Assembly: GCA_009992215.1 (NCBI GenBank)
Contig: JAACWB010000007.1
Span: 1-57,811, forward strand
Source of the DNA: an archaeon
Lineage (GTDB): Archaea > Nanobdellota > Nanobdellia > Pacearchaeales > GW2011-AR1
Direction of reading: 5' to 3'
Length of the DNA: 57,811 bases
The notes under the pieces were generated by a model that worked only from the letters and a program-made list of their open reading frames with translations, searched no databases and was not told the origin of the DNA. The position numbers and the translations under genes are program-made. Numbering within the stretch: position 1 is the first letter of the stretch; every line of letters starts with the position of its first letter. Of this stretch, positions 11,569 to 56,527 are shown piece after piece.

Positions 11569-11674
11569 AATTTTGTTTCTTTTTGGTTATTTTGAAATGT
11601 TGAACCGACTAACACGTACCAAAGTATGCGCTGTAAATTGAAATTTTAAACTAATTCAAAAATAATTCAAAATT
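11569..11674 (+). repeat. 106-bp hairpin element, copy 1 (GTAC-core subtype), followed by the right half of a TTTAC-core copy at 11678-11731
   Basis: AATTTTGTTTCTTTTTG...CAAAAATAATTCAAAATT ends shared with copies at 32377, 34602, 37109 and 56422. Confidence 0.9.
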
Positions 11675-11773
11675 GGAAAAGTAAACAACACAAGAAAATG
11701 CCTCGTCTAAACGCAAAAATAATTCAAAATTGAGTGAAGAAATTTATTTAAAGGATTTTGTTTTATAATTACT

Positions 11774-12325
11774 ATGTCAACAATATTACAAAGTGCACTT
11801 CTTACTAATTTTTTGTATCCTCTGCTCTTAGTTTTCTTTATTGTTTTTGCAATTTTAGAAAAGACTGAAATGTTAGGAAAGGACAAAAAGCAACTTAATG
11901 CAGGAATTGGACTTATTGTTGCTTTGATTTTTGTTGGAGCTGTTTATCCAAAGTTAATTGTTGAAAACATTTTACAATATTTGTCAGTTGGATTAGTTAT
12001 AATTTTCATTTCTCTAATGCTTTGGGGATTTATTAGTGGAAATAAAGACTTTACTGTAACTGATAAAGATGGACTTAAAATAAATAAAGCATTTTTATTT
12101 TTGGTTCTTGGTTCACTTGTTTGTGCTATTCTTTGGGCAACAGGAATAGGTGGAAAAGTGATTGATGGACTTCTTTTAATTTTTGGAACACTTTTCAAAT
12201 CTGATTGGAGTAGTTCGTTTTGGGCAAATTTTGTTATCATTGCAATAATATTAATTGTTGTTGCACTTGTTACTGGTTGGAATCCTTTCAAGAAAAAATT
12301 TGATTGGTGGATTAGATTAAAATAG
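11774..12325 (+). CDS. multi-pass membrane protein, paralog 1 of 3
   Basis: LYPLLLVFFIVFAILEKT; closely similar to 12442..12963. Confidence 0.8.
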   Translation: MSTILQSALLTNFLYPLLLVFFIVFAILEKTEMLGKDKKQLNAGIGLIVALIFVGAVYPKLIVENILQYLSVGLVIIFISLMLWGFISGNKDFTVTDKDGLKINKAFLFLVLGSLVCAILWATGIGGKVIDGLLLIFGTLFKSDWSSSFWANFVIIAIILIVVALVTGWNPFKKKFDWWIRLK

Positions 12326-12406
12326 TTAATAGTATGTAGCTTGTAGTTGGTAGTTTCTGGAAATTTTACAAACTATTTACTAAATACTAATATCTACTAA
12401 CTATTA
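12323..12406. repeat. 7-nt periodic inverted repeat (TAGNNNN)n / (NNNNCTA)n
   Basis: tagttaa tagtatg tagcttg tagttgg faces tttacta aatacta atatcta ctaacta. Confidence 0.6.
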
Positions 12407-12441
12407 GAAATCTATATAAATGATTTTTAGCTTATTTTAAC

Positions 12442-12963
12442 ATGGCAACAATATTACAAAGTTCACTTTTGACGAATTTTTTATATCCGTTACTTTTAGT
12501 GTTCTTCTTGTCTTATGCTATTTTACAAAAAACAAAAATATTGGGAGATGGCAAACAACAACTTGATGCTGGTGTTTCATTAATTGTTTCATTAATTTTT
12601 GTTGGTGCGGTTTTTCCAAAATTAATTGTTGCTAATTTGGTTCAATTCATGAGTGTTGGACTTGTAATTATTTTTGTTGGTTTAATGCTTTGGGGATTTA
12701 TTAGTGGTAAAGGAGAATTTCCAGAGAAGACAGTTAAGAAATTAGGTTGGGTTGTTGGAATTGCTATTGTCTTTGCTGTTTTATGGGCTACAGGAATGGG
12801 TTCTCCAGTTGTTTTAGGTCTTCAAAAGTTAATGGCTTTCCTATTTGATTCAAATTGGAGTGGAACATTTTGGACTAATGCAATTTTTGTTGTTATAGTT
12901 GCTGCTGCTATTGCTCTTGTTATGAAGAAAGCGCCTGTTGTTGAAGAAAAGAAAGGTGACTAG
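12442..12963 (+). CDS. multi-pass membrane protein, paralog 2 of 3
   Basis: LYPLLLVFFLSYAILQKT. Confidence 0.8.
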   Translation: MATILQSSLLTNFLYPLLLVFFLSYAILQKTKILGDGKQQLDAGVSLIVSLIFVGAVFPKLIVANLVQFMSVGLVIIFVGLMLWGFISGKGEFPEKTVKKLGWVVGIAIVFAVLWATGMGSPVVLGLQKLMAFLFDSNWSGTFWTNAIFVVIVAAAIALVMKKAPVVEEKKGD

Positions 12964-13017
12964 AAATAGTTCTTTTTGAATAAAAACATATATAAACAAT
13001 TTTTCATATAAAATAAT

Positions 13018-14946: not shown

Positions 14947-17244
14947 ATGGCAGAAGAGGTGAACCAAACAAAGAGAACTCCCAATTATACTGTTGAGAGA
15001 AAAGGAAGTGAAGATATTCTTTATATGGATTTTAAGACTGCAAAATTTTCTCCTAGTTTATCTGATAACCCAATAGTTATGGAAATGGTTGTTGATGCTT
15101 TGATTGAAAACCAAAATGTTACAAGAATTATTTTTGTACAAGAAAAAAATTATAATTATGATTTTCGTGAAACAAATTATCTTTTAGAAATTGCAAGCGC
15201 TTATGTTTATTTTACAAGACAAGAACAAATTTTGTCACATAACAAACTTGTTACAACACATGAAGAGTTTTTCCCTAAAAGATATAATGAACTTTTTACT
15301 TTTCTTAGTTACTTTAAGCGAGATCCTTTTTTAGCATATTTTGAATTAAGAAAAATTTTAATTGAAGCTAGAATTTTTTTGAATAAATGTCCTACTGAAT
15401 TGAAAAGTGATCAAGGAAATTATGTTAGATTTTTAGAAAAGATATTTAGTTTTTTTGAAGCAACAAAATTAATACAGGCTGCGCTTCCTTATTTGTCTGA
15501 TTATAAAAAGGGAGATAGACAAATTTATCATAGATTTTTCAAGCCAGATATTATTCCTAATTTTACTTTTACAAGATTGGTTCAAGATTTGCCACTTGAT
15601 TCAGAAATAGTTGATCAATATACAATTCAAGGGGAAGATTATGATCAGAGTACAATTACTGTTTTGAAATTGGTTGATCAGTCAAAGTTTTTTTATCATA
15701 TAACTCCGCCTGAAAGCACTTTAACTGAAGATGAAAACTCTTTACTTAAACTTGCTCGTGGTGTTTTAATTGAACATCAACCAAAGGCAGAGGAATTTGT
15801 TGATACTGAAAGGACTCGTCAAGTTTTTTTTAATATTGCAAAAGATTTGGTTCGTGATTTGGCACAATCAAAGGGACTTAATATTAATTTTTCAAGATTA
15901 AATAAATTGGCAAAAATTCTTGTTCGTCATACAATTGGTTTTGGTTTGGTTGAGGTTTTACTTCAAGATAAAAATACTCAAGATATTTCTTTGAATGCGC
16001 CTATTTCAATGACTCCAATTTATTTGAAACATGGAAAGTACGGGGAATGTGAAACAAATATTTTACCAAGTCGTGAAGATAGTGATTCTTGGGCTGCGAA
16101 ATTTAGAATGCTTTCAGGTAGGCCACTTGATGAAGCAAATCCAATTTTAGATACACAATTAGAAATTGAAGGAGATTTAAGAGCCAGAATTGCAATTATA
16201 CAAAATCCTCTTAGCCCTGATGGTTTGGCGTATTCAATTAGAAGACATAGAGAATCTCCTTGGACATTACCTTTATTTGTTCAAAATAAAATGCTTAATC
16301 CTTTCGCTGCTGGTTTACTTAGTTTTTTAATTGATGGTGCTAGGACAATTCTTGTTGCTGGAACTCGTTCAAGTGGTAAGACTTCTTTACTTGGAAGTAT
16401 GATGCTTGAAATTAATACGAAGTCTAGAATAATTACTGTTGAAGATTCTTTAGAACTTCCAATTGAAGCTCTTCGTCGATTAAAGTATAATATTTTACGA
16501 ATGAAGGTTCGTTCGGCTTTACTTAAAGGAACAAGTGAAGTTAGTGCTGAAGATGGAATTAGAACTTCCTTACGTTTAGGAGATTCATGTTTGATTGTTG
16601 GTGAAGTGCGTAGTGGTGAAGCAAAGGCTTTGTATGAAGCAATGAGAGTTGGTGCATTAGCAAATGTTGTAGCGGGTACAATTCACGGTGCGAGCCCTTA
16701 TGGGGTATATGACAGAGTTGTAAATGATTTGGAAGTTCCGGCAACTTCATTTAAAGCGACAGATATAATTGCTATAGCTAATCCAATAAAGTCTGCAGAT
16801 GGCCTACATTCATGGAGAAGACTTTTAGAAATAACTGAAGTTAGAAAACATTGGACTAAAGATCCTCTTTTAGAAAAAGGATTTGTTGATTTGATGGCAT
16901 ATAGCGTTGAGAAAGATGAAATTTTTCCTACAGATGATTTAATTAACGGAGATTCAGATGTGATAAAAGATATTGCTTCAAAAGTTAAAGGTTGGGCGGG
17001 AAATTGGGATGCAGTTTATGATAATATTTTGCTTCGTGCAAAAATGAAAAAAGAAATAGTTGATGTTAGTGAAAAGTCTGGGGACAAAAATCTGTTAGAA
17101 GCAGAATTTAATACGAGGGCTAACCATGAATTTCATAAAATTTCTGATGCTGCAATAGAAGAAGTTGGGCTTCCTACAAGTGAATATGTTTTTCCTCGTT
17201 GGCAAGAATGGTTAAATAAAGAAGTTAGAAAAAGAAGCATCTAA
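14947..17244 (+). CDS. type IV pilus / type II-IV secretion assembly ATPase (FlaI/TadA/VirB11 family)
   Basis: Walker A GTRSSGKTS, TVEDSLEL, SLRLGD, VGEVR, GTIHG. Confidence 0.93.
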   Translation: MAEEVNQTKRTPNYTVERKGSEDILYMDFKTAKFSPSLSDNPIVMEMVVDALIENQNVTRIIFVQEKNYNYDFRETNYLLEIASAYVYFTRQEQILSHNKLVTTHEEFFPKRYNELFTFLSYFKRDPFLAYFELRKILIEARIFLNKCPTELKSDQGNYVRFLEKIFSFFEATKLIQAALPYLSDYKKGDRQIYHRFFKPDIIPNFTFTRLVQDLPLDSEIVDQYTIQGEDYDQSTITVLKLVDQSKFFYHITPPESTLTEDENSLLKLARGVLIEHQPKAEEFVDTERTRQVFFNIAKDLVRDLAQSKGLNINFSRLNKLAKILVRHTIGFGLVEVLLQDKNTQDISLNAPISMTPIYLKHGKYGECETNILPSREDSDSWAAKFRMLSGRPLDEANPILDTQLEIEGDLRARIAIIQNPLSPDGLAYSIRRHRESPWTLPLFVQNKMLNPFAAGLLSFLIDGARTILVAGTRSSGKTSLLGSMMLEINTKSRIITVEDSLELPIEALRRLKYNILRMKVRSALLKGTSEVSAEDGIRTSLRLGDSCLIVGEVRSGEAKALYEAMRVGALANVVAGTIHGASPYGVYDRVVNDLEVPATSFKATDIIAIANPIKSADGLHSWRRLLEITEVRKHWTKDPLLEKGFVDLMAYSVEKDEIFPTDDLINGDSDVIKDIASKVKGWAGNWDAVYDNILLRAKMKKEIVDVSEKSGDKNLLEAEFNTRANHEFHKISDAAIEEVGLPTSEYVFPRWQEWLNKEVRKRSI

Positions 17245-17445
17245 CCTTTCTTGGCTTACAAAGAATTTATTTTTGCTTTCTTTGTAGTGCTCGTTAAAAT
17301 TTTTAAAATGGTTTGGGTTTAACAGTGGCTTACAAAGATTTGGTTGTCGTTATCTTTGTAGTGAAGAATGGTTAAATAAGAAAGTTATAAAAATTATTTG
17401 TAGGTAATTTTATAAATTGGAAGTTATTATTTCTTTTGAGAGAGG

Positions 17446-20400
17446 ATGAACAGAAGAGATAAATATATTTTTGGAATTTTATTTTTAGTAGTGCTAGCAG
17501 TATTTTTTCTTAATTTTGGATTTAAATTTACTGGGCATGCCATTACAGATTCAGGTTCAGATAATTTGAATGAATGGACAATGTTTGGTAGAACTTTAAA
17601 TAAAATAGATTGGGATTTTCAAAATTATCCCATTATTTCTGGTTTAAACAATCTGTTTTCCACACATGGAACTACAGGTAAACCAATAATAATTGATGGT
17701 TTTGTTTATGTTCAAGAGGGAGGAGAACTTAAACAATTAAATGCAAGCAAAGTAACTCAATTAATTTCATCAACTTCTCTAGGTTTTGCTGGTTCTGGAG
17801 GACCTGTTTATTTTGATGGCTCAATATATTTTATGGCTTATATTTCTGGTTATAAGTTATTTCGTTTAAATTCAAGTAATCTTACACAAGTATTAGATCA
17901 ATTTAATCCAAGCGGATTAATTAGTGGAAATCTCCTTCTTCGTGATGGTTTTATTTATTTTGGTGATCAATCAGGTAGATTTTATATGCTTAATGCAACA
18001 AACTTCAGTCAACAAAATATTTTTTATTATGGACCAGGAACTTTTGGACAAGAAATAATTCTTGGAGATTTTATTTATGCAACGAAATTTTTTAATAATG
18101 GAACATTATATCAATTAAATGCAAGTAATATAAGTCAAGTAATTTCAAATATAAATTATTCTGGATCTTCATCTTCTCTTATTGGGGTAAGTGATTTAAT
18201 TTATATTTCTTTTAACAAAAGTATTTATCAATTGAATTCAAGTAATTTGAGTCAAATTATTTCTCAATATTATTCTGGAGAAGATCTTCGTGATTTGTCT
18301 TACTCAAATGGTTATTTTTATTTTTCTTCTAATGCAAATAAATTATATCAGGTTAATGCAAGTAACATAACACAAGTTATTGCAATTAATAATTTGGCTA
18401 CTTCTTCAATCTCTTGGTCAATTCCAGTTAATAATGAATATTGTTATTTTTCAGATGGTGCGGGAATAGCATATCAAGTTAATGCAAGTAACGTTAGTCA
18501 ATTGATTGCAAAAACCCCTTTGTATGGAGAATCTTCTTATGGTTTTTCTATTTCAGATAATTATATTTATGGGGTTAGGTATAATTCATCAACTAATGAA
18601 CATGGGTTAGTTCAACTAAATGCAGAAAATATTTCTCTTGAAAATAATGTTAATGATGTGGTTTTTTCAAATTTAAATGACAACTCTGGAACTTTGATAG
18701 ATGCAGGTGTTGCTGAATTTAATGTCACAATACAGGATTCAAATGGGACAGTGTATTTGAATATAGATAATCAAAATTATTCGGCAATAAATTTAGGTGG
18801 AAATAATTATGAGGTCAATTTAACTTTGAATCCTGGAGACTATAATTACCATTGGATTTCTTTTAATTTGATTGATGAATTTTTTTCTTCAATAACAAAT
18901 AGTTATGTTTTTACTTCTACGCCTGTTGTTTCAGGAGGAAGTAGTTCTTCGAGTTCAGGTGGATCTACTGGTTTGGTTGCAGAATCTTATGATTTGGGAG
19001 ATTTGGAGAATATTGATTCAAAGGTTATAAATTTAAAATATGGTGGAAAGATTTCTTTTGATTTAAAGAATATACAATATAATATTTCATTGAAAAATAT
19101 TAATCGAGTGATTGATAATGTTACTTTAGAAATTTTACCTATTAAGAAAGATGTTGTGTTGAAACCAAATGAAAGTCAAGATATTGATTTGAACGGTGAT
19201 TTGGTTTATGACCTTAATTTAGGGGTTGGAAAAATTTCAGTTGATGAAGTTGAAGTTCAACTTGCACTAAAAAGAAAACCAATTGTTAGAACAGATGGCG
19301 AACCTATAGTAAAATCAGTTGCTGATACAAGTGGGGAAATAAAACAATTTGAATCTGTGGCTTCAAGTATATTTGGAGGAATTTTGGATTTATTTAATAC
19401 GAATAAATTTAAATGTAAAAAAATTGGTGAACACATTTGGGTGAATAATTTAAATTTTTGTGTAAGTTCAAAGATTAAACCTACTGTTGATAATTTGAAA
19501 GTTTTGATTTTTTTGAAAAAGTCTGTTCCTTTTGGGAAATCTTTTGTACAAATTGAAAAAATTCAAAAGTATGATTGTAATGGTTGTTTTTCTATTAATG
19601 TTCTTGTTAATGGAAAATCAAAAATTTATAATATTCAAGATTGGAAATTAGTTGATAATATTTGTGTGCCTATAACTTGTATTAGTGATGGGCGTAGATG
19701 TGGAGAAATATCTGATGGTTGTGGGAGAACATTAACATGTGGAACTTGTTCATGGGATTATGTTTGTAGTAAAGAGGGGGTTTGTATTCCTCCGGTTGTT
19801 TCTATTGGTTGTAGTGATAGTGATTCAGGTAAAAATTATTTAGTTCAAGGAGAAACAAAAGATAGGGCAGGAACCCAATTAGATTATTGTAATGGAAATA
19901 CTTTGGTTGAAGGTGTTTGTAGTGGACTTAAGAAAACTTCTGTTAATTATGAGTGTCCGAATGGATGTAAAGGTGGGGCATGCTTGCCTGAGCCTTGGTG
20001 TACTGATGATGACGCTATAAATGATATTTTTGTATTTGGAACAACAACAAATACTGGAGGACCATATGTCTTTAATGATGTTTGTGATTTATATAAAAAT
20101 AATACTGTGACTCAATATTATTGTAGAACTGATAAAGAGGTTATTGGTTCTTTGAGTTCTGATTGTACATTTGATTGTGTAAATGGTGCTTGTGTTAAGG
20201 GAACCTGTAGTGATAGTGATTTGAATGATTCAAAGATAAAGGGGACTGTTACTGATTATTTTGGAAAACATGAAGATTATTGTTCTACTGCATTAACTCT
20301 TGCTGAGGGTACTTGTGGAGCGGTTTCACAAGGGTCTCAATACAAAAAAGAATTTATTTATTGCCCTTATGGATGTCAAGATGGAAAATGTCTTGAAAGC

Positions 20401-21243
20401 GCTCCAAAATGTTCAGATAGTGATGGCCTTAATTTTTATAATCAGGGCACAATAAATTACTTAAAGATTGATGGCAATATTGGTCAAAGATCTGATACTT
20501 GTACTGAAAACACTGCTTACATAGGATTTTCATCTGGTTCTGGAGTTTATAATTTTGATTTTATTTGTCCACCAAATATGGCAAATACGTATCCTTATTA
20601 TGGGGGTAAAATGTATGAATGTCCAGAAGGGTGTGTTGATGGAAAATGTAGGGCTCCTAAAAATGAAACATCATTTTGTGATGATTATGGATATTGCAAA
20701 CTTTATTTAGGAGATTATTTGGTCTTTGATGAATATTTGGTAATAAATGTAGATTATGTTTATACAAATGAAGGTTTAGCAATTGGAGGAGATTATAATT
20801 ATTCTGTTCCACAAAAAACTAAATTATTATTTTCTCTTGGAAATAATTTCAATATTAATTCAGGAGAGTTAAACGAAGGAAATAACTTTGAGTATAATTT
20901 TAGTAATCAAGGATTCTTCTGGATGAATATTTCTATTTTGAATTTGTTTAGTAACAGAGATAGTAATGTAGTTTATGATACGGTCGCTAAACCTTATGTT
21001 GAATTTTATTTTGATATTCCTGATTATAAAACAAATACTAAAAAAAGGAAGGTTACTGTTAGAGTTGATAAAACTAAACCCAAACCAAAAAGTACTGTTG
21101 TGTATCAAAAACCAACTGTTTTAATAAAGGTTAAAAATTTTGTTTTAGATGTTATTGATCGTGGGAGGTCTTCTGTAAAGAGTGTTAATTCTAAAGGAAA
21201 ATCTTCTTACCGGGAATATATTCCTCCCGTATCAATTCACTAG
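17446..21243 (+). CDS. large secreted/surface protein: PQQ-like beta-propeller, Ig-like region and Cys-rich CxDSD repeats
   Basis: N-terminal TM plus FTGHAI, WTMFGR, about 8 QLNASNxSQ repeats, Ser/Gly linker, 4 C[S/T]D[S/D]D...CxxGCxxGxC repeats. Confidence 0.8.
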   Translation: MNRRDKYIFGILFLVVLAVFFLNFGFKFTGHAITDSGSDNLNEWTMFGRTLNKIDWDFQNYPIISGLNNLFSTHGTTGKPIIIDGFVYVQEGGELKQLNASKVTQLISSTSLGFAGSGGPVYFDGSIYFMAYISGYKLFRLNSSNLTQVLDQFNPSGLISGNLLLRDGFIYFGDQSGRFYMLNATNFSQQNIFYYGPGTFGQEIILGDFIYATKFFNNGTLYQLNASNISQVISNINYSGSSSSLIGVSDLIYISFNKSIYQLNSSNLSQIISQYYSGEDLRDLSYSNGYFYFSSNANKLYQVNASNITQVIAINNLATSSISWSIPVNNEYCYFSDGAGIAYQVNASNVSQLIAKTPLYGESSYGFSISDNYIYGVRYNSSTNEHGLVQLNAENISLENNVNDVVFSNLNDNSGTLIDAGVAEFNVTIQDSNGTVYLNIDNQNYSAINLGGNNYEVNLTLNPGDYNYHWISFNLIDEFFSSITNSYVFTSTPVVSGGSSSSSSGGSTGLVAESYDLGDLENIDSKVINLKYGGKISFDLKNIQYNISLKNINRVIDNVTLEILPIKKDVVLKPNESQDIDLNGDLVYDLNLGVGKISVDEVEVQLALKRKPIVRTDGEPIVKSVADTSGEIKQFESVASSIFGGILDLFNTNKFKCKKIGEHIWVNNLNFCVSSKIKPTVDNLKVLIFLKKSVPFGKSFVQIEKIQKYDCNGCFSINVLVNGKSKIYNIQDWKLVDNICVPITCISDGRRCGEISDGCGRTLTCGTCSWDYVCSKEGVCIPPVVSIGCSDSDSGKNYLVQGETKDRAGTQLDYCNGNTLVEGVCSGLKKTSVNYECPNGCKGGACLPEPWCTDDDAINDIFVFGTTTNTGGPYVFNDVCDLYKNNTVTQYYCRTDKEVIGSLSSDCTFDCVNGACVKGTCSDSDLNDSKIKGTVTDYFGKHEDYCSTALTLAEGTCGAVSQGSQYKKEFIYCPYGCQDGKCLESAPKCSDSDGLNFYNQGTINYLKIDGNIGQRSDTCTENTAYIGFSSGSGVYNFDFICPPNMANTYPYYGGKMYECPEGCVDGKCRAPKNETSFCDDYGYCKLYLGDYLVFDEYLVINVDYVYTNEGLAIGGDYNYSVPQKTKLLFSLGNNFNINSGELNEGNNFEYNFSNQGFFWMNISILNLFSNRDSNVVYDTVAKPYVEFYFDIPDYKTNTKKRKVTVRVDKTKPKPKSTVVYQKPTVLIKVKNFVLDVIDRGRSSVKSVNSKGKSSYREYIPPVSIH

Positions 21244-21456
21244 TTTGTTATTTTTTAAAATTTTATAACTTTTTTGTTTGAAAATATTTGATTAAAAAGA
21301 AAACTGGTTGTTAGAATTGATAAACCTATTTTGAGATAATTTCTTAACATTTATTAATTCATTTTTCTTGTTATTTATATTAAGAGGTGACAATTACTGG
21401 AATTTGAAAATTTGAAATAAATTTTTGATAATTATTTCAGTTATAAAATTAATAAT

Positions 21457-23622
21457 ATGCCGCAAAGAAGACCTAGCGTTGATGAAGTTTTAAGGAAGTA
21501 TGGTGCAAAAATAGAAGGACAAGTAAGAACAAGTAATGTTAATACACAAGAGTTTAGTCAATCTTATGAAAAATTTAAGGGAGAAATGACTCGACAATAT
21601 TCTGGTTATGAAAAATGGTGTCATACACTTGGAAATATAATTAGACTTAAACCTTCAAAAAAAGATGAAGATAGAATAAAAAAAGCAATTGATGGGGCTC
21701 ACTTAGATGTTGAGCCTTGGCAGGCAATTGGTCTTGGGGTTATGGCTTTCATTTCTCTATTTATGTTAGGATTATTAATTTCTGTTGCGATTGCTTTAGT
21801 TAAGGGAGATTTTGCAGAATTTCCTCTTTTGTTTTTCTTTTTAGTTGTGATTTTTTCAATGTTTATTTTTTATTTTTCACAGAGTTATCCTGAAAGATTA
21901 GCAAAACTTTGGAGACTTAAAGCTTCTAGTCAAATGGTTCCAGCAATTTTGTATATCGTTGTTTACATGAGGCATACACCTAATTTAGAAAAAGCAATTG
22001 CTTTTGCTGCAGAACATTTGGAACCTCCTTTGTCGTTAGATTTTAGAAAAATATTTTATGATGTTGAAGTTGGAAAATATTCTACGATTAAAGACAGTTT
22101 AGAAATTTATTTAGAATCTTGGAGGGGCTTTTCAACGGAATTTATTGAGGGGTTTCATTTAATTGAATCAAGTTTGTTTGAGCCTGAAGAAGGAAGAAGA
22201 ATTGCAACTTTAGAAAAGGCTCTGCAAGTAGTTCTTGACGGAGTTTATGACAAGATGCTTAATTTTAGTCATGAAGTGAAAGCTCCTTTAACAAATGTTT
22301 ACATGTTGGGAGTAGTTATGCCAACACTTGGTTTAGCTTTAATCCCTTTGGCATCAGCGATGGTGGGGGGAATGTTAAATTATGTTCATGTGTTTGTATT
22401 ATTTAATTTGATTATTCCCTTTCTTGTATATTTTTTAACAGATAAAATTTTGCTTTTACGTCCTGGAGGACATGGTAATTCAAGTTTTTTAGAAAGAAAT
22501 CCCCTATACCCAAAGTTTGTTAGTAAAGAACCTTTCAAAAAAGCATTTTTGATTGCACTTCCTTTTATTTTAATTTCTTTAATCCCTCTAATCTTTCATT
22601 ATACTCCTTTACCTGAAATGATGGGACTGCAAAAGGATTATACTTTCAATCAATTGGGGCTAGGGTTTTTGGGAAGAGATGAAATGTTTTTTGGTTTCAT
22701 TGATACTCTTGATGGAACTAAGGGCCCTTTTGGACTTGGTGCTGTTTTACTTGGGATGATGTTTCCAATAGGAATAGCCTTGTTTTTTGTAACGGCTTAT
22801 CGAGAGAAAACAAAAGATTTAATTTTGGAAAGAAACAAAACAAAAGAACTTGAAAAAGAATTTAATAATTCTTTATTTCAAATAGGAAATCGATTAGGTA
22901 ATGGTGTTCCTCCTGAACTTGTTTTTAGTCGTGTTGCAGAATCAACAAAAGGACTTAGAACAGGGGAATTTTTTAGTCGAGTTAATTATAATATTCAACA
23001 ATTAGGAATGAGTGTTGAGGCTGCTGTATTTGATAAAGACCGTGGAACAATTAGATTTTTTCCTTCGCAATTAATTGCAACTTCAATGAGAGTTTTAATT
23101 GAATCCTCAAAGAAGGGATTAAAGATTGCTGCTGTTTCACTTATGAGTATTTCTGAATATATTAAGAACATAAATAAAATCACAGTTAGATTAAAAGATT
23201 TGTTAGCTGAAGTTACGAGTGATATGAAATCAAATATGACTTTTTTAGCTCCTTTACTTTCAGGAATTGTTGTTGGTTTGGCATCGATGATTACTTCTAT
23301 TTTAGGAAAACTTCAAGTTGGAGATTTAGCTGCTGGTGGAGCGGACTTAGGGGGTATTGGAGACATTGTAAATATTTTTGATTATCAATCAATGATTCCT
23401 CCTTATTTTTTACAAATTTCCGTTGGAATTTACTTAATACAAATAATATTTATTTTAACTAGCGCGCTTGTTACAATTGATGAAGGTGAAGACAAATTAG
23501 AACAAAGAAGTCAAGCTGCAGAATATTTGAAAAAAGGGATTGGTATGTTTTTTGTTACGGCACTAATTGCAACTGTAACATTATCTGTTCTTGGAACAGT
23601 TGTTTTGGGCAATTTGTTTTAG
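21457..23622 (+). CDS. type IV pilus membrane platform protein (TadC/FlaJ/T2SS-F-like)
   Basis: Multi-TM protein with two T2SSF-like cytoplasmic domains (LEKAI; GNRLGNGVPPE); in the ATPase locus. Confidence 0.8.
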   Translation: MPQRRPSVDEVLRKYGAKIEGQVRTSNVNTQEFSQSYEKFKGEMTRQYSGYEKWCHTLGNIIRLKPSKKDEDRIKKAIDGAHLDVEPWQAIGLGVMAFISLFMLGLLISVAIALVKGDFAEFPLLFFFLVVIFSMFIFYFSQSYPERLAKLWRLKASSQMVPAILYIVVYMRHTPNLEKAIAFAAEHLEPPLSLDFRKIFYDVEVGKYSTIKDSLEIYLESWRGFSTEFIEGFHLIESSLFEPEEGRRIATLEKALQVVLDGVYDKMLNFSHEVKAPLTNVYMLGVVMPTLGLALIPLASAMVGGMLNYVHVFVLFNLIIPFLVYFLTDKILLLRPGGHGNSSFLERNPLYPKFVSKEPFKKAFLIALPFILISLIPLIFHYTPLPEMMGLQKDYTFNQLGLGFLGRDEMFFGFIDTLDGTKGPFGLGAVLLGMMFPIGIALFFVTAYREKTKDLILERNKTKELEKEFNNSLFQIGNRLGNGVPPELVFSRVAESTKGLRTGEFFSRVNYNIQQLGMSVEAAVFDKDRGTIRFFPSQLIATSMRVLIESSKKGLKIAAVSLMSISEYIKNINKITVRLKDLLAEVTSDMKSNMTFLAPLLSGIVVGLASMITSILGKLQVGDLAAGGADLGGIGDIVNIFDYQSMIPPYFLQISVGIYLIQIIFILTSALVTIDEGEDKLEQRSQAAEYLKKGIGMFFVTALIATVTLSVLGTVVLGNLF

Positions 23623-29620: not shown

Positions 29621-29705
29621 TTTAAAAAAATTTTTTCATTATTTCACGCGCCCGAATCGCAAAGTCGCGTCCCGCCACACCCTAATTACGAAAAAATTTT
29701 CTAAA
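29621..29705. repeat. C-tract-loop hairpin element, copy 5
   Basis: AAAATTTTTTC/GAAAAAATTTT stem around CGCGCCCGAAT...CGCGTCCCGCCACACCC-TAATTAC. Confidence 0.8.
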
Positions 29706-30430: not shown

Positions 30431-31009
30431 TTAGTTAGAATTATTCTTCGGATAAGAGTAGAAAAAATATAATTTTTCCTTTTCTTTTTTATTATTAAAG
30501 AAAACTCTCCATGCAAAATGAGTTGGTTTTTGATTTTTTCTTAAAGTGTTCTTTATTTGGACAGGTAGTGCTTTAAATGATTGTTTTATTGGCATAAAAC
30601 TAGTCAAACTAATTGTCATTATTGTTGTTGAAAATAAAAAGAATTCTAAGAAATTGTTGAATTTAATCTCGTGAAATGTTATCTCTTCCTCTAATTTCTT
30701 GTATTCTTCAAATTCTTTTTTCTTTCTTAAATTTAATTTTTTTATTTTATTAAATATTTTTTTTGCTTCATTTTGTGTCAATTTAGGTTTTATGTTTTGC
30801 AATAAAACTATTTTTTGTATCATTATTAGTGAAATAAAAAAGACAATTAACAGGATTGTTGCAAATATTAATTTATCTAAGACTCTTATTTGAAAAAGAG
30901 AGGTTTCTCTTATCCAGTATATTGGAACATAAAGAAATAGTATTGAAAGAACATATACTGCAGATAGTTCTAGCACATCATTTGCTTTCTCAACAAATTT
31001 TTTATCCAT
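30431..31009 (-). CDS. hypothetical membrane protein
   Basis: Three hydrophobic segments. Confidence 0.5.
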   Translation of the reverse strand: MDKKFVEKANDVLELSAVYVLSILFLYVPIYWIRETSLFQIRVLDKLIFATILLIVFFISLIMIQKIVLLQNIKPKLTQNEAKKIFNKIKKLNLRKKKEFEEYKKLEEEITFHEIKFNNFLEFFLFSTTIMTISLTSFMPIKQSFKALPVQIKNTLRKNQKPTHFAWRVFFNNKKEKEKLYFFYSYPKNNSN

Positions 31010-31083
31010 GGCTTACCTAAGGGGACTTATTTAATAAAGATTTAGTTAAAAAAATAAAATAAAATTAGAAAAAATTTGTGAAT

Positions 31084-31356
31084 TTATGCGATTTTTCTTT
31101 GATCGATTAGTTCACATGAAGCAACACCTTCGATTGAAGCGAATTTTTCTTCTAATGGTTCGATGTCTTGGTCATCTGGATAGAAGAAAAATACAATTAC
31201 TGCTTTTAATCCGAATGCAATCGGTTGAACTTCGTATTCTTTGTTTGTTCCTCCGAATTCTTCTACAATCTTTTTTGCAGCTTCTTCAATTGCACCTAAA
31301 TCTACTTCTGGAGATTCGGGCATCAATTTGTATTTAGCACCATTTATTCCTGCCAT
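31084..31356 (-). CDS. ef1b: translation elongation factor aEF-1beta
   Basis: MPESPEVDL, PIAFGLKA. Confidence 0.93.
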   Translation of the reverse strand: MAGINGAKYKLMPESPEVDLGAIEEAAKKIVEEFGGTNKEYEVQPIAFGLKAVIVFFFYPDDQDIEPLEEKFASIEGVASCELIDQRKIA

Positions 31357-31457
31357 ATTTTTGTTTGGTTAAATTAGTTTATAAAATTTGGGATTGATTC
31401 TGTTATCTCTCAAAAAAGTTACATAATCCTTAAAAAGAAAAGAAAATTATTTGTCTT

Positions 31458-32378: not shown

Positions 32379-32481
32379 TTTTGTTTATTTTTGGTTTATA
32401 CTTTGTTATTTCCTTACTCGTTTACAGAAAGTAAACAACGCAAGAAAATACCTTGTCTAAACACAAAAATAATTCAAAATT
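32377..32481 (+). repeat. 105-bp hairpin element, copy 2 (TTTAC-core subtype)
   Basis: Conserved ends; core GTTTAC-AGAAA-GTAAAC; overlaps the RPA stop codon. Confidence 0.9.
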
Positions 32482-32523
32482 GGGAAAAGAAAGTTTTTTT
32501 AACTGTTTTAGTTAGATAAAGAA

Positions 32524-32838: not shown

Positions 32839-32887
32839 TTCAAATTGGGATTGAAAGATTTTTAATAAATAAAACATTCTTACTACC

Positions 32888-33337: not shown

Positions 33338-33350
33338 TATATTTATTATA

Positions 33351-34707: not shown

Positions 34708-34756
34708 GGTTTTAGAGAATAATAATTCTTAAATAGGTTGTTTTGTTTTGTTTATT

Positions 34757-35763: not shown

Positions 35764-35874
35764 TAATTGTTAAAAGAAATTAGCCTTTTTTAATTTATTG
35801 AAATTATTTCTTTTTTCTTTAGTCTAGTAAGATTTAAAAAATCAGATTTATTTGTGTAGATAGTGATTTAAGAA

Positions 35875-37110
35875 ATGGAACTAAGTGTAAACATCGTTAT
35901 ATTATGTCTTCTTATTGTTTTTTCGGCAATATTTTCTGGAATGGAAACTGCATTAATGGCGGTTAGCCGTGTTAAGATTAATTCTTTAGTTGAACAAAAA
36001 AAGAAAGGAGCTCTCGCTCTTCAGAGAATAAAAAATAAAACACATAAGTTAATTATAACAATTCTTATTGGAAATAATTTAATTAATATTAGTGCCGCTG
36101 CTCTTGCAACAGTTACTTTTTCTCAATTATTTGGATCAAATGGTGTTGGAATGGCAACTGGAATTATGACTTTTATGATTTTAGTTTTTGGGGAAATTGC
36201 TCCAAAGACTTTCGCTTCACAAAACGCTGTTAAAGTTTCTCTTAAAGTTGCAAGACCACTTGAAATTTTAATGAAAATTTTATCTCCTTTGGTTTGGTTT
36301 TTTGAGAAAATAACAGGATTTGTTACAAAACTTTCTGGAGGAAAGAAAAAGGAAGAAATTTCTGAAGAAGATTTGAAATCATTTTTATCTATGGGGCGTA
36401 AGGAAGGGGTTTTAGATAAAGACGAAGCTGAAATGATGCATAATATTTTGGAGTTTAAGGATACAAAAGTAGTTGATGTGATGACTTACGAAGATGAAAT
36501 TGAAATGATTGATGGAAACAAAACTATTCAAGATGTTTTGGAATTTATTGTAAAGTCGCCTTTTTCTCGTTATCCAATTTATTTGAATGAAAGAGATAAT
36601 GTTATTGGAATTGTTGATGTTGATGATGTACTTAGAGCTTTACACGAAAAAAAGACAAGGAGAAAAATTAAAACAATTGCAAAAGATGTTTTGTTTGTTC
36701 CAGAATCAAAAGAAGTTGATGAATTACTTAGTGAATTAGATAAACGTAACGAGAAAATTGCTCTTGTTGTAAATGAATATGGGGACGTTATTGGTTTTGT
36801 AAGTATTGAAGATATTTTAGAAGAAATTGTTGGAGATGTTTTTGATAAGAGTCGTCGTAGAAGTGCTTATTTAACAAAGATAAATGAAAGACTTTTTAGA
36901 ACTAAAGCTAAAATTCCCTTGGAAGAATTGAATAAAATATTGGAAACAAATTTAGAATCTGAAACTTCAAATACTCTTGGAGGATTTATCCAAGAGAAAT
37001 TAGGAAAAATTCCAAACAAAGGAGACAAAATAAAATATAAAAAATTTATTTTTGAAGTTGAGAAAGCTAGTCGGAAGGGGATTGAATTTGTTAAAATAAT
37101 AAAAGGGTAA
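35875..37110 (+). CDS. CNNM/CorB hemolysin-family protein (DUF21, CBS and CorC domains)
   Basis: FSGMETA, ILIGNN, FGEIAPK, FSRYPIY, EDILEEIVG. Confidence 0.93.
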   Translation: MELSVNIVILCLLIVFSAIFSGMETALMAVSRVKINSLVEQKKKGALALQRIKNKTHKLIITILIGNNLINISAAALATVTFSQLFGSNGVGMATGIMTFMILVFGEIAPKTFASQNAVKVSLKVARPLEILMKILSPLVWFFEKITGFVTKLSGGKKKEEISEEDLKSFLSMGRKEGVLDKDEAEMMHNILEFKDTKVVDVMTYEDEIEMIDGNKTIQDVLEFIVKSPFSRYPIYLNERDNVIGIVDVDDVLRALHEKKTRRKIKTIAKDVLFVPESKEVDELLSELDKRNEKIALVVNEYGDVIGFVSIEDILEEIVGDVFDKSRRRSAYLTKINERLFRTKAKIPLEELNKILETNLESETSNTLGGFIQEKLGKIPNKGDKIKYKKFIFEVEKASRKGIEFVKIIKG

Positions 37111-37214
37111 TTTTGTTTCTTTTTGGTTATTTTAAAATGTTGAAACGACGAACACGTACCGAAGTACGCGTTGTCGATTGAAATTTTAAACTAATTCAAA
37201 AATAATTCAAAATT
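37109..37214 (+). repeat. 106-bp hairpin element, copy 4 (GTAC-core subtype)
   Basis: Conserved ends; core CGAC-G-AAC-ACGTAC-CGAA-GTACGC-GTT-GTCG; overlaps the stop codon. Confidence 0.9.
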
Positions 37215-37227
37215 ATATAAATTAATT

Positions 37228-37371
37228 TTACTTGAAAAATCTGTTATCGCTTTTTGGGGCGTCTTTAATTTTTATAAATTTGTAGTGTGCATCAAGAGTT
37301 TTTCCAGTACATTTTGGACAGATTTCTTTTAAGGTATATTTTTTACAATTTGGGCATTTTCTTAGTTTCAT
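37228..37371 (-). CDS. nop10: Nop10 H/ACA RNP zinc-ribbon protein (47 aa, not in ORF track)
   Basis: MKLRKCPNCKKYTLKEICPKCTGKTLDAHYKF; downstream of aIF2-alpha, as in other archaea. Confidence 0.85.
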   Translation of the reverse strand: MKLRKCPNCKKYTLKEICPKCTGKTLDAHYKFIKIKDAPKSDNRFFK

Positions 37372-37419
37372 ATGTTTTGTAATATAAATTTATTTAAATT
37401 AGTTTTGTATTAACATTTA

Positions 37420-37827
37420 ATGGCAATTAGTAAATTTCCTCTTGGTTCAGAAATTAAAAAACTTGAAGATATTTTAGAATTAACTTTGCTAAAAGAAGGA
37501 GATAGGGTTTTGATATATTATAATGAAGCTGTTAATGAAGGTCCTACAAGGAATAGCAATATTGCTCCTGATTTAGTTTATGGAGATTATAAAAATTTTG
37601 ATATGAAATTTCCAGGTTATGGGGGAATTACTCTTACTGATTCTCTGGAATTAGATGTTAAATTTAGAAAGATAAATGAACAAACAATTAATTTCTTAGA
37701 AAACTTAAGACAATCCAAAATATTTGATATAAATAAAGAAAAACATCATTATATAAATGGTTTTTATAATTCTCCAAATGCTTTTGGAATTTATTTGATA
37801 AGAAAAGATATTAATACGTCTAAATAA
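37420..37827 (+). CDS. hypothetical protein
   Basis: 135-aa ORF, no motif recognised. Confidence 0.55.
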   Translation: MAISKFPLGSEIKKLEDILELTLLKEGDRVLIYYNEAVNEGPTRNSNIAPDLVYGDYKNFDMKFPGYGGITLTDSLELDVKFRKINEQTINFLENLRQSKIFDINKEKHHYINGFYNSPNAFGIYLIRKDINTSK

Positions 37828-37837
37828 TTTTTTAAGA

Positions 37838-38245
37838 TTATTCTAAATTAGTAATATATTCATGAAGTCTTGAAGGTAATTCAACGCCGAGTTTTTCTTC
37901 TACTTCACTAGGTTTAACCCAAAGTAATTCAGTTATTTTTCCGCCCGGTGTTACTTCTCCTTCTCTTATTTCACAAAGGAAATGAATCTTTAGTTTTTCG
38001 TTATTTTTTAGCATGTTTTCAGCGTAAACTGCACCTAAATTATGCACAGTACATCCAGTTGTTTCTTTAATTGTTCTCTTTAAGCATTTATCCAGTTCTT
38101 CTTCGTGTGTTAAGTCTCCTTCGATAAAAGAATAATGGTCTTCATTGTCTAATCTTCCTACAAGTACTTTTCTTGTTGATGTATCAAAGATTATTCCTAC
38201 AATTTTTACATAAAATTTCTCTTTTTCCATAGAATTATTTATCAT
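37838..38245 (-). CDS. NUDIX hydrolase (degenerate box)
   Basis: EG.L..EE....CLKRTIKETTG. Confidence 0.75.
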   Translation of the reverse strand: MINNSMEKEKFYVKIVGIIFDTSTRKVLVGRLDNEDHYSFIEGDLTHEEELDKCLKRTIKETTGCTVHNLGAVYAENMLKNNEKLKIHFLCEIREGEVTPGGKITELLWVKPSEVEEKLGVELPSRLHEYITNLE

Positions 38246-42405: not shown

Positions 42406-42469
42406 GTTTATTTTTTGCAAATGACAAATCTTATAAATTAAAATTCTTAGATTATTATATTGTTTTACT

Positions 42470-42542
42470 AGCCCCGTAGTCTAGTGGTCAAGGATACAGG
42501 ACTTTGAATCCTGTGACCCCGGTTCGAATCCGGGCGGGGCTA
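42470..42542 (+). tRNA. tRNA-Gln(TTG)
   Basis: AGCCCCG/CGGGGCT acceptor stem (archaeal A1-U72), CAGGA-CTTTGAA-TCCTG anticodon arm, GGTTCGAATCC; no encoded CCA. Confidence 0.97.
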
Positions 42543-42651
42543 TTTTTGTGGGGTCACGTGACCACAACTCAAGCCCGCAACATTTTTTATTTTTTCATTT
42601 TGAATTTATTTGAAATGTTGCAAACTTTCGGGTTTGAAAATCCGAGCGGAG

Positions 42652-43026
42652 CTACTTTTTTGTTAGAATTTCTAAATTACTTGGGCGCACAGATTTTAAT
42701 GAATTATCATTTCTATTAATATTTATTTTTGTTTTATATGGTTTGAATTCTTCTCCTTTTGTTTCTGTGAGGAGATCTTTTCCTGGTTCAATTTTAATGT
42801 TATATTGGCCTTCACCTAAATTATAATTTATTCTTCCCCAACAATCTCCATTATATACAATTGTGTCTTTTTTGCTATAGAAAGTCGCTTTAGGAAATGA
42901 AGGAAAATAGAATTCTTCTGGCTCAATTATTATTGTTCCTTTTGTTTTTGTTTCGAGGGGTTTTGAAGAGAATAAGAACGGGGACAAAGACAATGCAATT
43001 ATTGCAATACCTCTTTTTATATTCAT
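42652..43026 (-). CDS. hypothetical secreted protein
   Basis: Signal peptide KRGIAIIALSLSPFLF. Confidence 0.55.
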   Translation of the reverse strand: MNIKRGIAIIALSLSPFLFSSKPLETKTKGTIIIEPEEFYFPSFPKATFYSKKDTIVYNGDCWGRINYNLGEGQYNIKIEPGKDLLTETKGEEFKPYKTKININRNDNSLKSVRPSNLEILTKK

Positions 43027-54517: not shown

Positions 54518-54551
54518 AATCTTATAAACAATTCATTACTTTTTTATTTAG

Positions 54552-55802
54552 GTGAAAATGAAAGGAATTTTAGTTATTATTGACGGACTTGGTGACTTAC
54601 CAAATTATCAACTTAAAGGTAAGACTCCTTTGGAAGCTGCGAATACCCCAAATATGGATTTTTTAGCGACAAGAGGAGAAATGGGTTACATGTATACAGT
54701 GAAGCCTGGTTTTACTCCTGGTTCAGAGCATGCAATTCTTTCAATGTTTGGAAATAATCCTGATGCTTGTCCTCGAGGTCAAATTGAGGCTGTTGGGGCA
54801 GGAGTAAAATTAACTCCTGGAGATTTAGTATTCAGAGTTAATTTTGGAACAATTGATTCACTTGAAAGAGGAAATGTAATTGACAGGCGTGCAGGTAGAA
54901 CACTTCCAACAAAAGAAGCAAAGAAACTTGCAAAGGTCATAAATAAAATTGAATTTCCATATAAATTTGAGTTTACGCCAATTAGTCAACATAGAGCAGT
55001 TTTGGTTTTTCACGGACATTACGTTGACACTATAACTGGAAATGATTCTACTTACACCCACAGAGGTGGACGAGAGATTGAAAAAGTTGAACCTTGTTTA
55101 CCTAAAGATAAAAGTATAAAATCAAGAGAAACTGCTGAGATGGTTAATGAATTTTTTGATTTGGTTTATGAAACTTTGAAAGATCATCCAATAAATAAAA
55201 AGAGAGTTATGAAAGGTTTACTTCCTGCGAATTATTTGTTTGCTCGTGGACCTGGTTCAAAAAAACCAAAGCTCGTAAAATACAAGGGCTGGATTTCAAC
55301 ACATGCAATGCCTCTTGAAGTTGGATTTTCTATTATGTCTGGAATCAAAAATTATCCTTTCAAATATCCAAAACTAAAAGGGTTTGATGTTTACAAAAAC
55401 TTGTGGGCTGGATTAAAAAAATCGGTTGAACATTCTAAGAGAGTAATTAAAAGAAATCTAAAGAAGGCAGATTATTGTTATGTACATTTTAAGGAAGTTG
55501 ATATTCCTGGGCACGATAATAAACCATTTGAAAAAAAGGCAATGATTGAATACATTGACAAATATTTTTTCAAGTATCTTTGTAAAATTGCTCCAATGAA
55601 TAAAATTAAGGTTGTTGTTACGGGAGATCATTCAACTCCATGCAAACTTAAAGCTCACTCAAGTGACCCTGTACCTGTTTTATTATATAACTTCTCTTTA
55701 CCTAAGGAAAAGAAACATTTTACAGAGGAAGAGGCAAGGAAGGGCGCTCTTAAGAGAATTATTGGGCATGATTTTTTGAAAAAAGTTGGTTTTACAAAAT
55801 AG
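54552..55802 (+). CDS. apgM: 2,3-bisphosphoglycerate-independent phosphoglycerate mutase, archaeal type
   Basis: DGLGD, TPLEAANTPNMD, DRRAGR, GHD, TGDHSTP, HSSDPVP. Confidence 0.93.
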   Translation: MKMKGILVIIDGLGDLPNYQLKGKTPLEAANTPNMDFLATRGEMGYMYTVKPGFTPGSEHAILSMFGNNPDACPRGQIEAVGAGVKLTPGDLVFRVNFGTIDSLERGNVIDRRAGRTLPTKEAKKLAKVINKIEFPYKFEFTPISQHRAVLVFHGHYVDTITGNDSTYTHRGGREIEKVEPCLPKDKSIKSRETAEMVNEFFDLVYETLKDHPINKKRVMKGLLPANYLFARGPGSKKPKLVKYKGWISTHAMPLEVGFSIMSGIKNYPFKYPKLKGFDVYKNLWAGLKKSVEHSKRVIKRNLKKADYCYVHFKEVDIPGHDNKPFEKKAMIEYIDKYFFKYLCKIAPMNKIKVVVTGDHSTPCKLKAHSSDPVPVLLYNFSLPKEKKHFTEEEARKGALKRIIGHDFLKKVGFTK

Positions 55803-55860
55803 TGTCTTTATTTTTTAGTAGAACAATAATAATTAAAAGGAGTCATACTTTTTTTACGGT

Positions 55861-56418
55861 ATGATTACTTACAAGGACATTTATGAGGCGGCAAAAAAAG
55901 AGCGTTATTCTGAAAATTTACAACCAATTCCAAAGAGTTTTATTAAAGATGTATCTAAATATTTGAAGGAAAAAAGAGAAGCAGCTTCAAAGGAAGATGA
56001 TGTTTTTAGTGATGTTTTGTTAAAGACAAAAAAACAACTTGAGAATGCAATAACTCTTTTTCAAGAGCTTCTTCGTCGTAGGAGAAAAAAGATTCTGAAT
56101 TTGGTTTTGATTGCTAGTGAGACTGGAATTAGTAAACAAGATTTTGAAAATATGCTTTTACTTGAAAAATCTCTTTTTGAAGATTTGATGCAATGTATTG
56201 AGAAGAGCGACAGAAAAATGAATGAATCTTTGAATGGAAAGAAAGATGAGGAATTACAACAAAATAATTTAATTGTGTTTTTGGAGGACACTCCTGAATT
56301 TTTATCAACTACTGGAGAAAAATTTGGTCCTTACTTAATTGGCCAATTTGCAAATATTCCAAAAGAAATTGCAAGTGTTTTTTTGGAAGATGGGAAGGCT
56401 GAATTAATGGAAAAATAA
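55861..56418 (+). CDS. GINS complex subunit (Gins51-like)
   Basis: ITY..IYE..KKER....LQ, RRRKKI, EK.LF, C-terminal B domain FGPY..G..ANIP. Confidence 0.82.
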   Translation: MITYKDIYEAAKKERYSENLQPIPKSFIKDVSKYLKEKREAASKEDDVFSDVLLKTKKQLENAITLFQELLRRRRKKILNLVLIASETGISKQDFENMLLLEKSLFEDLMQCIEKSDRKMNESLNGKKDEELQQNNLIVFLEDTPEFLSTTGEKFGPYLIGQFANIPKEIASVFLEDGKAELMEK

Positions 56419-56421
56419 TTT

Positions 56422-56527
56422 AATTTTGTTTCTTTTTGGCTAAAATGCAAAGATTTTCCTTGCTCGTTTACAGAAGTAAACAACGCAATAAAAATCTTTA
56501 ATTTTATCTCAAAAATAATTCAAAATT
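56422..56527 (+). repeat. 106-bp hairpin element, copy 5 (TTTAC-core subtype)
   Basis: Conserved ends; AAAGATTTT..TTGC..GTTTAC-AGAA-GTAAAC..GCAA..AAAATCTTT. Confidence 0.9.

Follow-up and report, generated by a model that had tools for sequence, protein, structure and literature searches.

We describe a short hairpin-forming DNA element that recurs directly behind protein-coding genes in an archaeon of the order Pacearchaeales (GW2011-AR1, Nanobdellota). The window, that is, the whole stretch of 57,811 nucleotides (nt) that was analysed, comprises positions 1 to 57,811 of the forward strand of contig JAACWB010000007.1 (NCBI GenBank assembly GCA_009992215.1); in our numbering it is contig C19 of the organism's own genome, G000, which has 889,227 bases in 56 contigs, a G+C content of 29.0% and a completeness of 80%. 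Five full copies of the element lie in the window, together with a half copy and a lone repeat of its 3' arm:

11268 to 11564, + strand: open reading frame (ORF) of 98 aa, its TAA 4 nt before copy 1
11569 to 11674, + strand: copy 1, interior of subtype B with apical GTAC..GTAT; 39.1 bits on the antisense strand with covariance model R1
11681 to 11731, + strand: half copy, the 3' half of a subtype-C hairpin (model positions 56-107), 6 nt behind copy 1
32377 to 32481, + strand: copy 2, subtype C; 79.1 bits with the covariance model
32830 to 32851, + strand: direct repeat of the 3' arm plus flank, 22 nt, CAAAAATAATTCAAATTGGGAT, closing a 348-nt insert (32482-32829)
34602 to 34707, + strand: copy 3, subtype B; 2 nt past the TAA of radA (33541-34599)
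37109 to 37214, + strand: copy 4, subtype B; 2-nt overlap with the TAA of a CNNM/CorC gene (35875-37110)
56422 to 56527, + strand: copy 5, subtype A; 111.6 bits; 3 nt past the TAA of a Gins51-like gene (55861-56418)

The + strand ORFs upstream of the five full copies end at 11564, 32378, 34599, 37110 and 56418; hence, the gaps between stop codon and element are 4, -2, 2, -2 and 3 nt, and the first two bases of copy 2 are the AA of the TAA of an OB-fold (RPA-like) gene (31458-32378). An earlier reading of the window, made from the sequence without database searches (hereafter the sequence-only reading), had already placed the five full copies at these coordinates, each within 5 nt of the TAA of a + strand gene, and had seen that two of them, copies 2 and 4, overlap it; all of this is confirmed. 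Its inventory had, however, overlooked the half copy, which terminates in a second, exact 3' arm (CAAAAATAATTCAAAATT), and the 22-nt arm copy. Its gene labels RPA, radA, CNNM and GINS agree with the Pfam matches (OB-fold taken as RPA, 2.1e-7; RadA (Rad51), 1.5e-89; CNNM, 3e-59; Gins51_C, 5.8e-8); for the 98-aa ORF that it labelled 'PRC-barrel', Pfam gives no match at 1e-5. The 18-mer of the 3' end occurs seven times in the window at no more than two mismatches, against 0.57 expected and with none of 100 shuffles getting to seven; the 18-mer of the 5' end occurs five times against 0.28 expected. Copy 1, the GTAT variant, has the weakest fold of the window copies (-14.4 kcal/mol, z -1.1), and behind copy 5 a convergent ORF terminates at a distance of 14 nt.

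In the genome as a whole, a profile search and a covariance model returned an identical set of 31 loci; 30 own-genome copies and 60 fetched from relatives make up a set of 90 copies from nine genomes in all. The position of these copies is highly regular. In 27 of the 31, a start-to-stop ORF of 70 aa or more precedes the element on the same strand, with its end -8 to +6 nt from base 1 of the element. Two others follow short ORFs, namely a zinc-ribbon-like frame of 39-67 codons and a frame of 66-73 codons that we take to be L24e-like; one is truncated by the contig end; and at C31:37800-37906 (region to 38690) a 280-aa ORF runs 19 codons through the 5' arm (variant AATTTCATCCC) to a TAA in the apical loop, so that the element encodes the tail of the protein. 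None of the 31 copies opposes its ORF, the polarity being that of the upstream gene. Across the larger set, 82 of the 90 copies have an open frame of at least 30 codons with a stop ending -8 to +9 nt from base 1, the mode being +2 (38 copies) and the next +1 (13 copies); the radA copy of the related genome G007 falls outside the scan window by a few bases, its stop lying about 10 nt upstream. In the 38 copies at +2, the final two bases of the stop codon pair with the final two bases of the element, and both change together:

TAA stops at +2: AA..TT in 21 of 27
TGA stops at +2: GA..TC in 6 of 9; GA..TT in 3 of 9
TAG stops at +2: AG..CT in 2 of 2

Each copy forms one end-to-end hairpin. Its near-invariant base consists of a 7-bp stem (AATTTTG/CAAAATT), a 4x5 internal loop with TTTC on the 5' side and TAATT or TAAAT on the 3' side, and a 6-bp stem (TTTTTG/CAAAAA); the terminal stem is kept in variants such as AAAACTG/CAGTTTT and AATTTCA/TGAAATT. 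Above this base, the interior of about 70 nt comes in at least four subtypes, rather than the two described from the window, and these are mutually unalignable and all paired, with a total length of 103-108 nt in 89 of the 90 copies. The pattern of invariant asymmetric ends, fixed length and a variable yet always paired core, first recognised in the five window copies, holds across the 90. An alignment of 30 copies by MAFFT with RNAalifold gave only 13 basal pairs, the subtypes misaligning; therefore, a covariance model was built from 11 subtype-A copies and 75 copies were aligned to it. In this alignment, which is fitted to the model and made up of copies related to one another, 91.2% of the pair cells are standard as against 72.4% in shuffles, double-sided changes occur in 41 of 43 pairs, and the covariation score is 0.468, compared with 0.160 for shuffled copies (none of 500 as high) and 0.07-0.10 with the partners slid. 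The covariation is strong, as the compensating cores reported from the window would predict, and the element is strongly non-random and under structural constraint.

The two strands of the element differ in their capacity to fold. Of the two, the one antisense to the gene is the better folder in 29 of 30 own-genome copies and in 83 of 90 overall, with a mean energy of -30.1 kcal/mol against -22.8 kcal/mol for the sense strand; with G.U pairs forbidden, the values are -22.4 and -21.0 kcal/mol. Counted by position, G.T falls on the antisense strand 257 times and on the sense strand 133 times, or in 179 against 91 cells of the fitted alignment.

The element copies are dispersed behind conserved housekeeping genes, the order of which is conserved as well. 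Among 25 host proteins scanned with Pfam, 22 could be named and three had no match; they include RadA, the OB-fold protein, CNNM, Gins51, GatD, GatE, two class II tRNA synthetases and enolase, and further the beta subunit of PFOR, a P-type ATPase, GyrA, Kae1, an eRF1-family protein, a peptidase and regulators. The replication and repair theme that the window's host genes had suggested is a coincidence, since the 25 scanned genes share no theme. Downstream, the next co-directional ORF of G000 begins 33-69 nt behind the element in a dozen cases. The flank at +1 to +13 is G- and purine-rich and C-poor, and is followed by AT-rich, TATA-like sequence 14-30 nt behind the element, a succession that fits a promoter front. 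On the side of the element away from the stop codon, the promoter region of the next gene usually follows.

Oligo-T is the archaeal signal for transcription termination. A run of five or more T is found in the first 20 nt of 83 of the 90 copies on the sense strand and of 86 on the antisense strand, so that the mark of an archaeal oligo-T terminator (at least five T right behind the gene) is present on both strands; such runs occur within 30 nt of the stop in 27% of 873 other crude gene calls, as against 13% of coding control windows. A scan for bacterial-type terminators found none within the elements. With T runs on both strands, the element would halt transcription from either side, between the gene and what follows, and it thus probably also serves to stop transcription in both directions, or as an insulator, where the gene ends. 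The sense-strand run lies at positions 12-16, ahead of the hairpin; if transcripts end there, in the 5' arm, a hairpin would seldom form in the sense RNA, which agrees with the weaker sense fold.

Insertion is without target duplication, directly on the stop codon and always in the gene's polarity. The flanks of the 31 standard copies of G000, in which we looked for the target-site duplications of an ordinary MITE (miniature inverted-repeat transposable element), hold none above shuffled controls, and likewise no long flank duplication, for which the sole exception is a divergent copy (C54:18802-18900). As there is no target duplication, the element is not of the DDE-type MITE kind, and it is supported that the family is not a classical MITE. 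The 15-nt 5' arm was counted across genomes at no more than one mismatch: it occurs 21-29 times in the element-rich genomes (G000, G001, G003, G007 and G021) and 1-13 times in genomes without a model match, a reversed-pattern control giving 1-9; post-stop positions are just slightly T-enriched genome-wide. Therefore, the arm is part of the element rather than a generic motif of gene ends. The idea that it is a generic terminator motif of the genus was accordingly rejected, its counts being at background in the element-free genomes. Copy 5 had no blastn match in plasmids and phages, and a pattern scan of viral contigs returned no match. The divergent copy (region 17500-22600 of C54) faces the stop codon of a NifU-like gene in the opposite orientation, and a 74-nt duplication of the 3' end of this gene flanks the copy; between it and a full copy at 21779-21886 lies a tyrosine recombinase gene with an in-frame TAG (19863-20336).

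The family is narrowly and patchily distributed. By the model and strict filters, it is present in 7 of 22 other species of the genus, in one of 14 other genera of the family and in none of 24 genomes from other families of the order; when genomes representing species were scanned for the exact pattern, matches came from metagenome-assembled genomes (MAGs) labelled Nanoarchaeota, Nanoarchaeia and Candidatus Woesearchaeota. Comparison with relatives recovers empty sites: the site behind the CNNM gene is occupied solely in G000, and four related genomes lack the element there and are T-rich directly after the stop. The site behind the RPA-like gene is occupied in three of six genomes, and in a fourth, the relative G016, it holds a 33-nt remnant (L092, around 549-581) in which TTTTGTTTCTTTTTGGCTAA is joined to CATAATTCAAAAC with the interior deleted. 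Behind radA, four genomes bear the element, each with a different interior subtype, and 14 host-gene groups (13 plus radA) bear it in two to five genomes. Same-gene copies are 0.66-0.80 identical across genomes, whereas the best copy from the same genome is 0.70-0.98 identical, and the orthologous copy is the top cross-genome match in just 8 of 25 pairs. Thus, the sites persist, and their content is overwritten or homogenised within each genome. Side observations on radA are a possible 20-nt remnant behind the gene in G016 (L092, around 1722-1741, CTTTTTCAAATAAATTTTTT), a radA match in G006 (L068) that ends at residue 311 within an 844-aa open frame, suggesting an intein-like insertion, and a radA divided over two contigs in G011 (L069/L070).

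Inserts are found at the 3' arm as well. In G000, six full copies have an insert of 36-348 nt behind them, and each insert is closed by a direct repeat, 18-24 nt long, of the 3' arm; the inserts behind full elements lie at:

window, 11675 to 11731
window, 32482 to 32851
contig C13, 2277 to 2330
contig C20, 255 to 355
contig C43, 3438 to 3569
contig C9, 14773 to 14988

On C43 the 24-nt repeat spans the junction between element and flank, reaching 8 nt into the flank; therefore, these are duplications around other inserts, and the alternative of 5'-truncated (retro-type) copies, which had been considered for the solo 3' arms, was rejected. The insert at 32482-32829 holds a promoter-like stretch and a 104-aa ORF (32524-32838) whose TAA is inside the repeat 32830-32851, and in the stretch from the RPA-like gene to radA, ORFs of 90 aa or more are found only in the three of six genomes with the hairpin there, a small and non-independent sample. 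A comparable pattern lies elsewhere in the window: the tRNA-Gln gene (42469-42543) is followed by T5, then by an insert of about 75 nt with a GGGGTCACGTGACC hairpin, which is closed by a degenerate copy of the final ~23 nt of the tRNA and another T run, the whole arrangement spanning 42469-42660. A second small palindromic repeat family, with inverted ends GAAAATTTCTTCGTTAT.../...TAATTACGAAGAAATTTTC and a GC-rich core (CGCGCCCGAATTTTTGAAACGCGTCCCGCC-like), was read at 16 places in G000, including cores at 9814-9852 and 29665-29702 of the window, and several of its copies stand directly behind hairpin elements. Apart from these repeats, the window holds three big co-oriented ORFs (765, 1265 and 721 aa) at 14947-23622.

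The element matches no known family outright. Against Rfam 15, only tRNA reached the gathering threshold; at E up to 1, the stretch 32300-37300 gave three chance-level matches, none at its own threshold. In structure and behaviour it comes close to the REPINs, the ends of which are conserved and inverted, whose spacer has only to keep its length and its capacity to form a hairpin, and in which compensatory changes are common (PMC3116915). The element has such ends, a fixed-length hairpin spacer and compensatory changes, and it is likewise extragenic, stands behind genes in tens of copies, is vertically kept and evolves as a within-genome population. It differs in having no linked RAYT (Y1 HUH transposase), with zero Y1_Tnp matches in G000; in its ends, AATTTTG...CAAAATT, which are without the GTAG or CGTC tetranucleotide tag borne by REP ends (PMC3733652); in being an AT-rich single hairpin of 105 nt as opposed to a pair of GC-rich REPs of 20-40 nt; and in being archaeal rather than bacterial. 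Some REPs also lie near stops, about 11% of those of E. coli being within 15 nt of a stop codon (PMC12306157), whereas the element is stop-fused in nearly every copy.

The second point of comparison is the attC site of integrons, a bottom-strand hairpin that also has extrahelical bases. Like it, the element is an imperfect hairpin that starts at the end of an ORF and in the orientation of that ORF, and it seems to present a similar succession of paired terminal box, unpaired spacer, second paired box and variable distal structure; the attC repeats of Vibrio cholerae (VCR) are of about 124 nt. Further, attC sites favour the recombined bottom strand through 1.24 versus 0.39 G:T pairs per site, with 1.28 kcal/mol as the residual (PMC5027507), and the element appears to favour its bottom strand via G:T pairs in a similar way, by a bias that is uneven among genomes; the residual of the two is about 1.3-1.4 kcal/mol. 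The six own-genome inserts at the 3' arm, between arm repeats of 18-24 nt, are a further likeness. In contrast, attC core sites read RYYYAAC / GTTRRRY, the AAC of the crossover being conserved (PMC5027507), and the terminal box of the element is mostly AATTTTG/CAAAATT, with neither such cores nor a conserved AAC. An integron has an integrase and arrays of cassettes, mostly promoterless and each with an attC at its end. The element forms no such arrays, its copies standing behind housekeeping genes whose order is conserved; a search with the Phage_integrase model, no IntI-specific model having been run, identified no integrase of the integron type; and the inserts at the element end in a copy of one arm only, without a hairpin of their own. 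Of the earlier proposal of an attC- or REP-like element rather than a classical MITE, then, the case against a MITE and the REPIN pattern are supported, and membership of either family is not.

With MITEs and other palindromic repeats (Correia, ERIC/RU-1, RUP, SPRITE, Rickettsia RPE) the element shares a length of about 100 nt, inverted ends and a stable fold, and with the Rickettsia RPE also a copy that is read through as protein. Termination effects have been proposed for prokaryotic MITEs and palindromic repeats (PMC10969869). It departs from them in lacking a target duplication and in being anchored on stop codons with fixed polarity. The PATEs derived from IS200/IS605 have separate left and right subterminal hairpins as against the single end-to-end hairpin of the element, and G000 is without a match to a Y1 transposase or TnpB. 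A 2024 review of prokaryotic MITEs gives few archaeal cases (Sulfolobus, Halobacterium, Haloquadratum, Desulfurococcus and a few others), and a term search of it gives no 'stop codon' (PMC10969869); a term search of a 2025 REP survey of bacteria and archaea likewise gives no DPANN (PMC12306157). Our full-text searches of the literature returned no description of such stop-codon hairpin elements.

Taking these features together, we propose, with a probability of about 0.55, that the element is a non-autonomous DNA hairpin repeat specific to one lineage, the DPANN archaea of Pacearchaeota/Woesearchaeota type, built and behaving like a REPIN or attC. Briefly, we envisage the following plausible mode of action. 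The recognised part would be the invariant base, namely the 7-bp stem including the last two stop-codon bases, the TTTC/TAATT loop and the TTTTTG/CAAAAA stem, and the interior of about 70 nt would need only to stay a fixed-length hairpin. The folded strand antisense to the gene might then be the DNA-level substrate for copying, replacement or recombination by a putative enzyme. Resident copies would be repeatedly overwritten or homogenised in a genome while the sites persist, and a two-way transcription stop of use to the host would explain their long retention at housekeeping genes.

Several points weigh against this proposal. The partner enzyme that it calls for has no visible candidate: Y1_Tnp, RVT_1 and the TnpB zinc ribbon are without a match in G000 (80% complete); in the genus, whose MAGs searched for partner enzymes are 74-93% complete, Y1_Tnp exceeds the cut-off in one of eight element-bearing genomes as against four of 15 others; and Phage_integrase (tyrosine recombinase) matches occur in all 23 genomes, one to five in each. 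Neither the HUH enzyme nor the tyrosine recombinase that the sequence-only reading had named as possible companions is thus linked with the presence of the element. We know of no transposition chemistry that explains an exact anchoring on stop codons. The strand bias is uneven, at about 3:1 in G000, 2:1 in G007 and G021, and 1:1 in G001, G016 and G003; therefore, part of it may be inherited from founder copies. The alignment behind the cell counts (A4) was, moreover, fitted to the antisense model, and template switching at quasi-palindromes can mimic compensatory changes without selection. Termination at the T runs is a prediction from the sequence. Finally, no recent insertion or excision was caught: contigs of four aquifer DNA runs on 31000-38000 carry the same copies and no joint skipping the element, and the deviating letters inside their elements stem from other family copies.

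The alternative that survives best, which we nonetheless hold to be unlikely, is that of a cis-acting structured RNA in the 3' untranslated region of the upstream gene, tuning termination or ribosome release or shielding the 3' end of the mRNA from exonucleases. It would account for the polarity of the upstream gene in 31 of 31 copies and for a stop codon that is part of the terminal helix and changes in step with the 3' end; the fold of the sense strand, too, is good in four of the five window copies (z -3.5 to -5.5), and in E. coli REPs at under 16 nt from a stop codon lower translation (PMC12306157). What it does not lead one to expect is that sense is the weaker-folding strand in 83 of 90 copies, that the interior is swapped for other subtypes at the same gene, and that the element is so patchy in the genus. 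Further, the T5+ run, if it acts as the archaeal termination signal described above, precedes the hairpin in 83 of 90 copies, and many transcripts may end before the hairpin is reached.

A bolder form of the hairpin-repeat proposal, which we consider quite unlikely, makes the hairpins the sites on which a hitherto undescribed archaeal system of single-strand DNA recombination acts, one that homes in on gene ends. In this picture, the antisense strand in its folded form would be the substrate, as in attC, and the last bases of the element would select the target by pairing with its stop codon. The 3' arm would then be a docking site for small cassettes behind core genes, and the duplication of about 20 nt at the end of an insert behind the tRNA gene of the same genome would tie in with such a system.

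It is improbable that the element is instead a terminator or insulator module of the host's own making, not mobile and spread by ordinary recombination or gene conversion between short homologies such as T-rich gene ends and purine-rich promoter fronts. Element-free sites are indeed T-rich after the stop (e.g., TGA-TTTTAATTTCTTTTTTTG behind the CNNM gene of G016), positions +1 to +13 beyond the element are rich in G and purines and poor in C, homogenisation within genomes is seen and no transposase was found. However, the exact 15-nt 5' arm stands at background in element-free genomes, the homology shared amounts to only about 18 nt per side, and the occurrence is patchy among species; four distinct interiors between the same ends would be expected if recognition is of the ends.

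That the element descends from a DDE insertion sequence and moves by cut-and-paste, as a classical MITE, is very improbable. The 7-bp terminal inverted repeats, the approximately 30 copies and the patchy distribution are of the kind that such an origin would yield, and a look-alike hairpin is embedded in a true MITE of a Muribaculaceae MAG. Against this stand the absence of a target duplication in all 31 copies, a pairing that spans the whole length and covaries, the absence of the bacterial MITE's outer terminal inverted repeat (TIR) from the own genome, and the absence of any parent insertion sequence among what was seen, the DDE families not having been searched one by one. The interior of the look-alike gives no significant sign of homology (46 of 300 shuffles as good), and its covariance-model score rests largely on the ends by which the pattern had selected it. 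As an observation in its own right, a ~190-bp MITE (L184, L185, L258-L271) is present in 32 or more copies in the Muribaculaceae MAG and in two copies in a Prevotellaceae MAG; it has an 18-bp TIR (GGGGACTTCTATAAATTA) and a 4-bp target duplication, in a host of 52% GC. Its core is a 103-nt AT-rich hairpin with the same base module, TATTTTG-TTTC-TTTTTGG ... CTCAAAAA-TAAAT-CAAAAT, of which the antisense strand again folds better, and some copies have an extra 69-nt hairpin inserted at the 5' arm.

Least probable of all is a family of small antisense RNA genes, arising for instance from divergent activity of the next promoter and acting on the 3' end of the upstream mRNA, for, despite the G.U signature, the lower folding energy of the antisense strand and the AT-rich, TATA-like sequence 14-30 nt behind the element, the repeated unit has no promoter, its flanks are non-homologous beyond the G/purine-rich stretch, the antisense strand itself opens with a T5 run in 86 of 90 copies, and no Rfam family matches.

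Returning to the reading of the element as a non-autonomous hairpin repeat, hairpin repeats of the REP, REPIN and attC types are known as bacterial and as having a dedicated enzyme; here, a comparable system is found in archaea with ultra-small genomes, and no partner enzyme can be recognised. No described family follows so strict a rule of position, the stop codon being fused to the element and part of its helix. The strand bias and the pairing with the stop codon provide testable handles, in the form of the strand that folds, the binder of the invariant base and the ends of transcripts. If the proposal is true, DPANN genomes would thereby obtain ready-made two-way signals at their gene ends along with marked places of gene-content change, which would bear on how very compact genomes insulate neighbouring genes from each other and yet acquire DNA.

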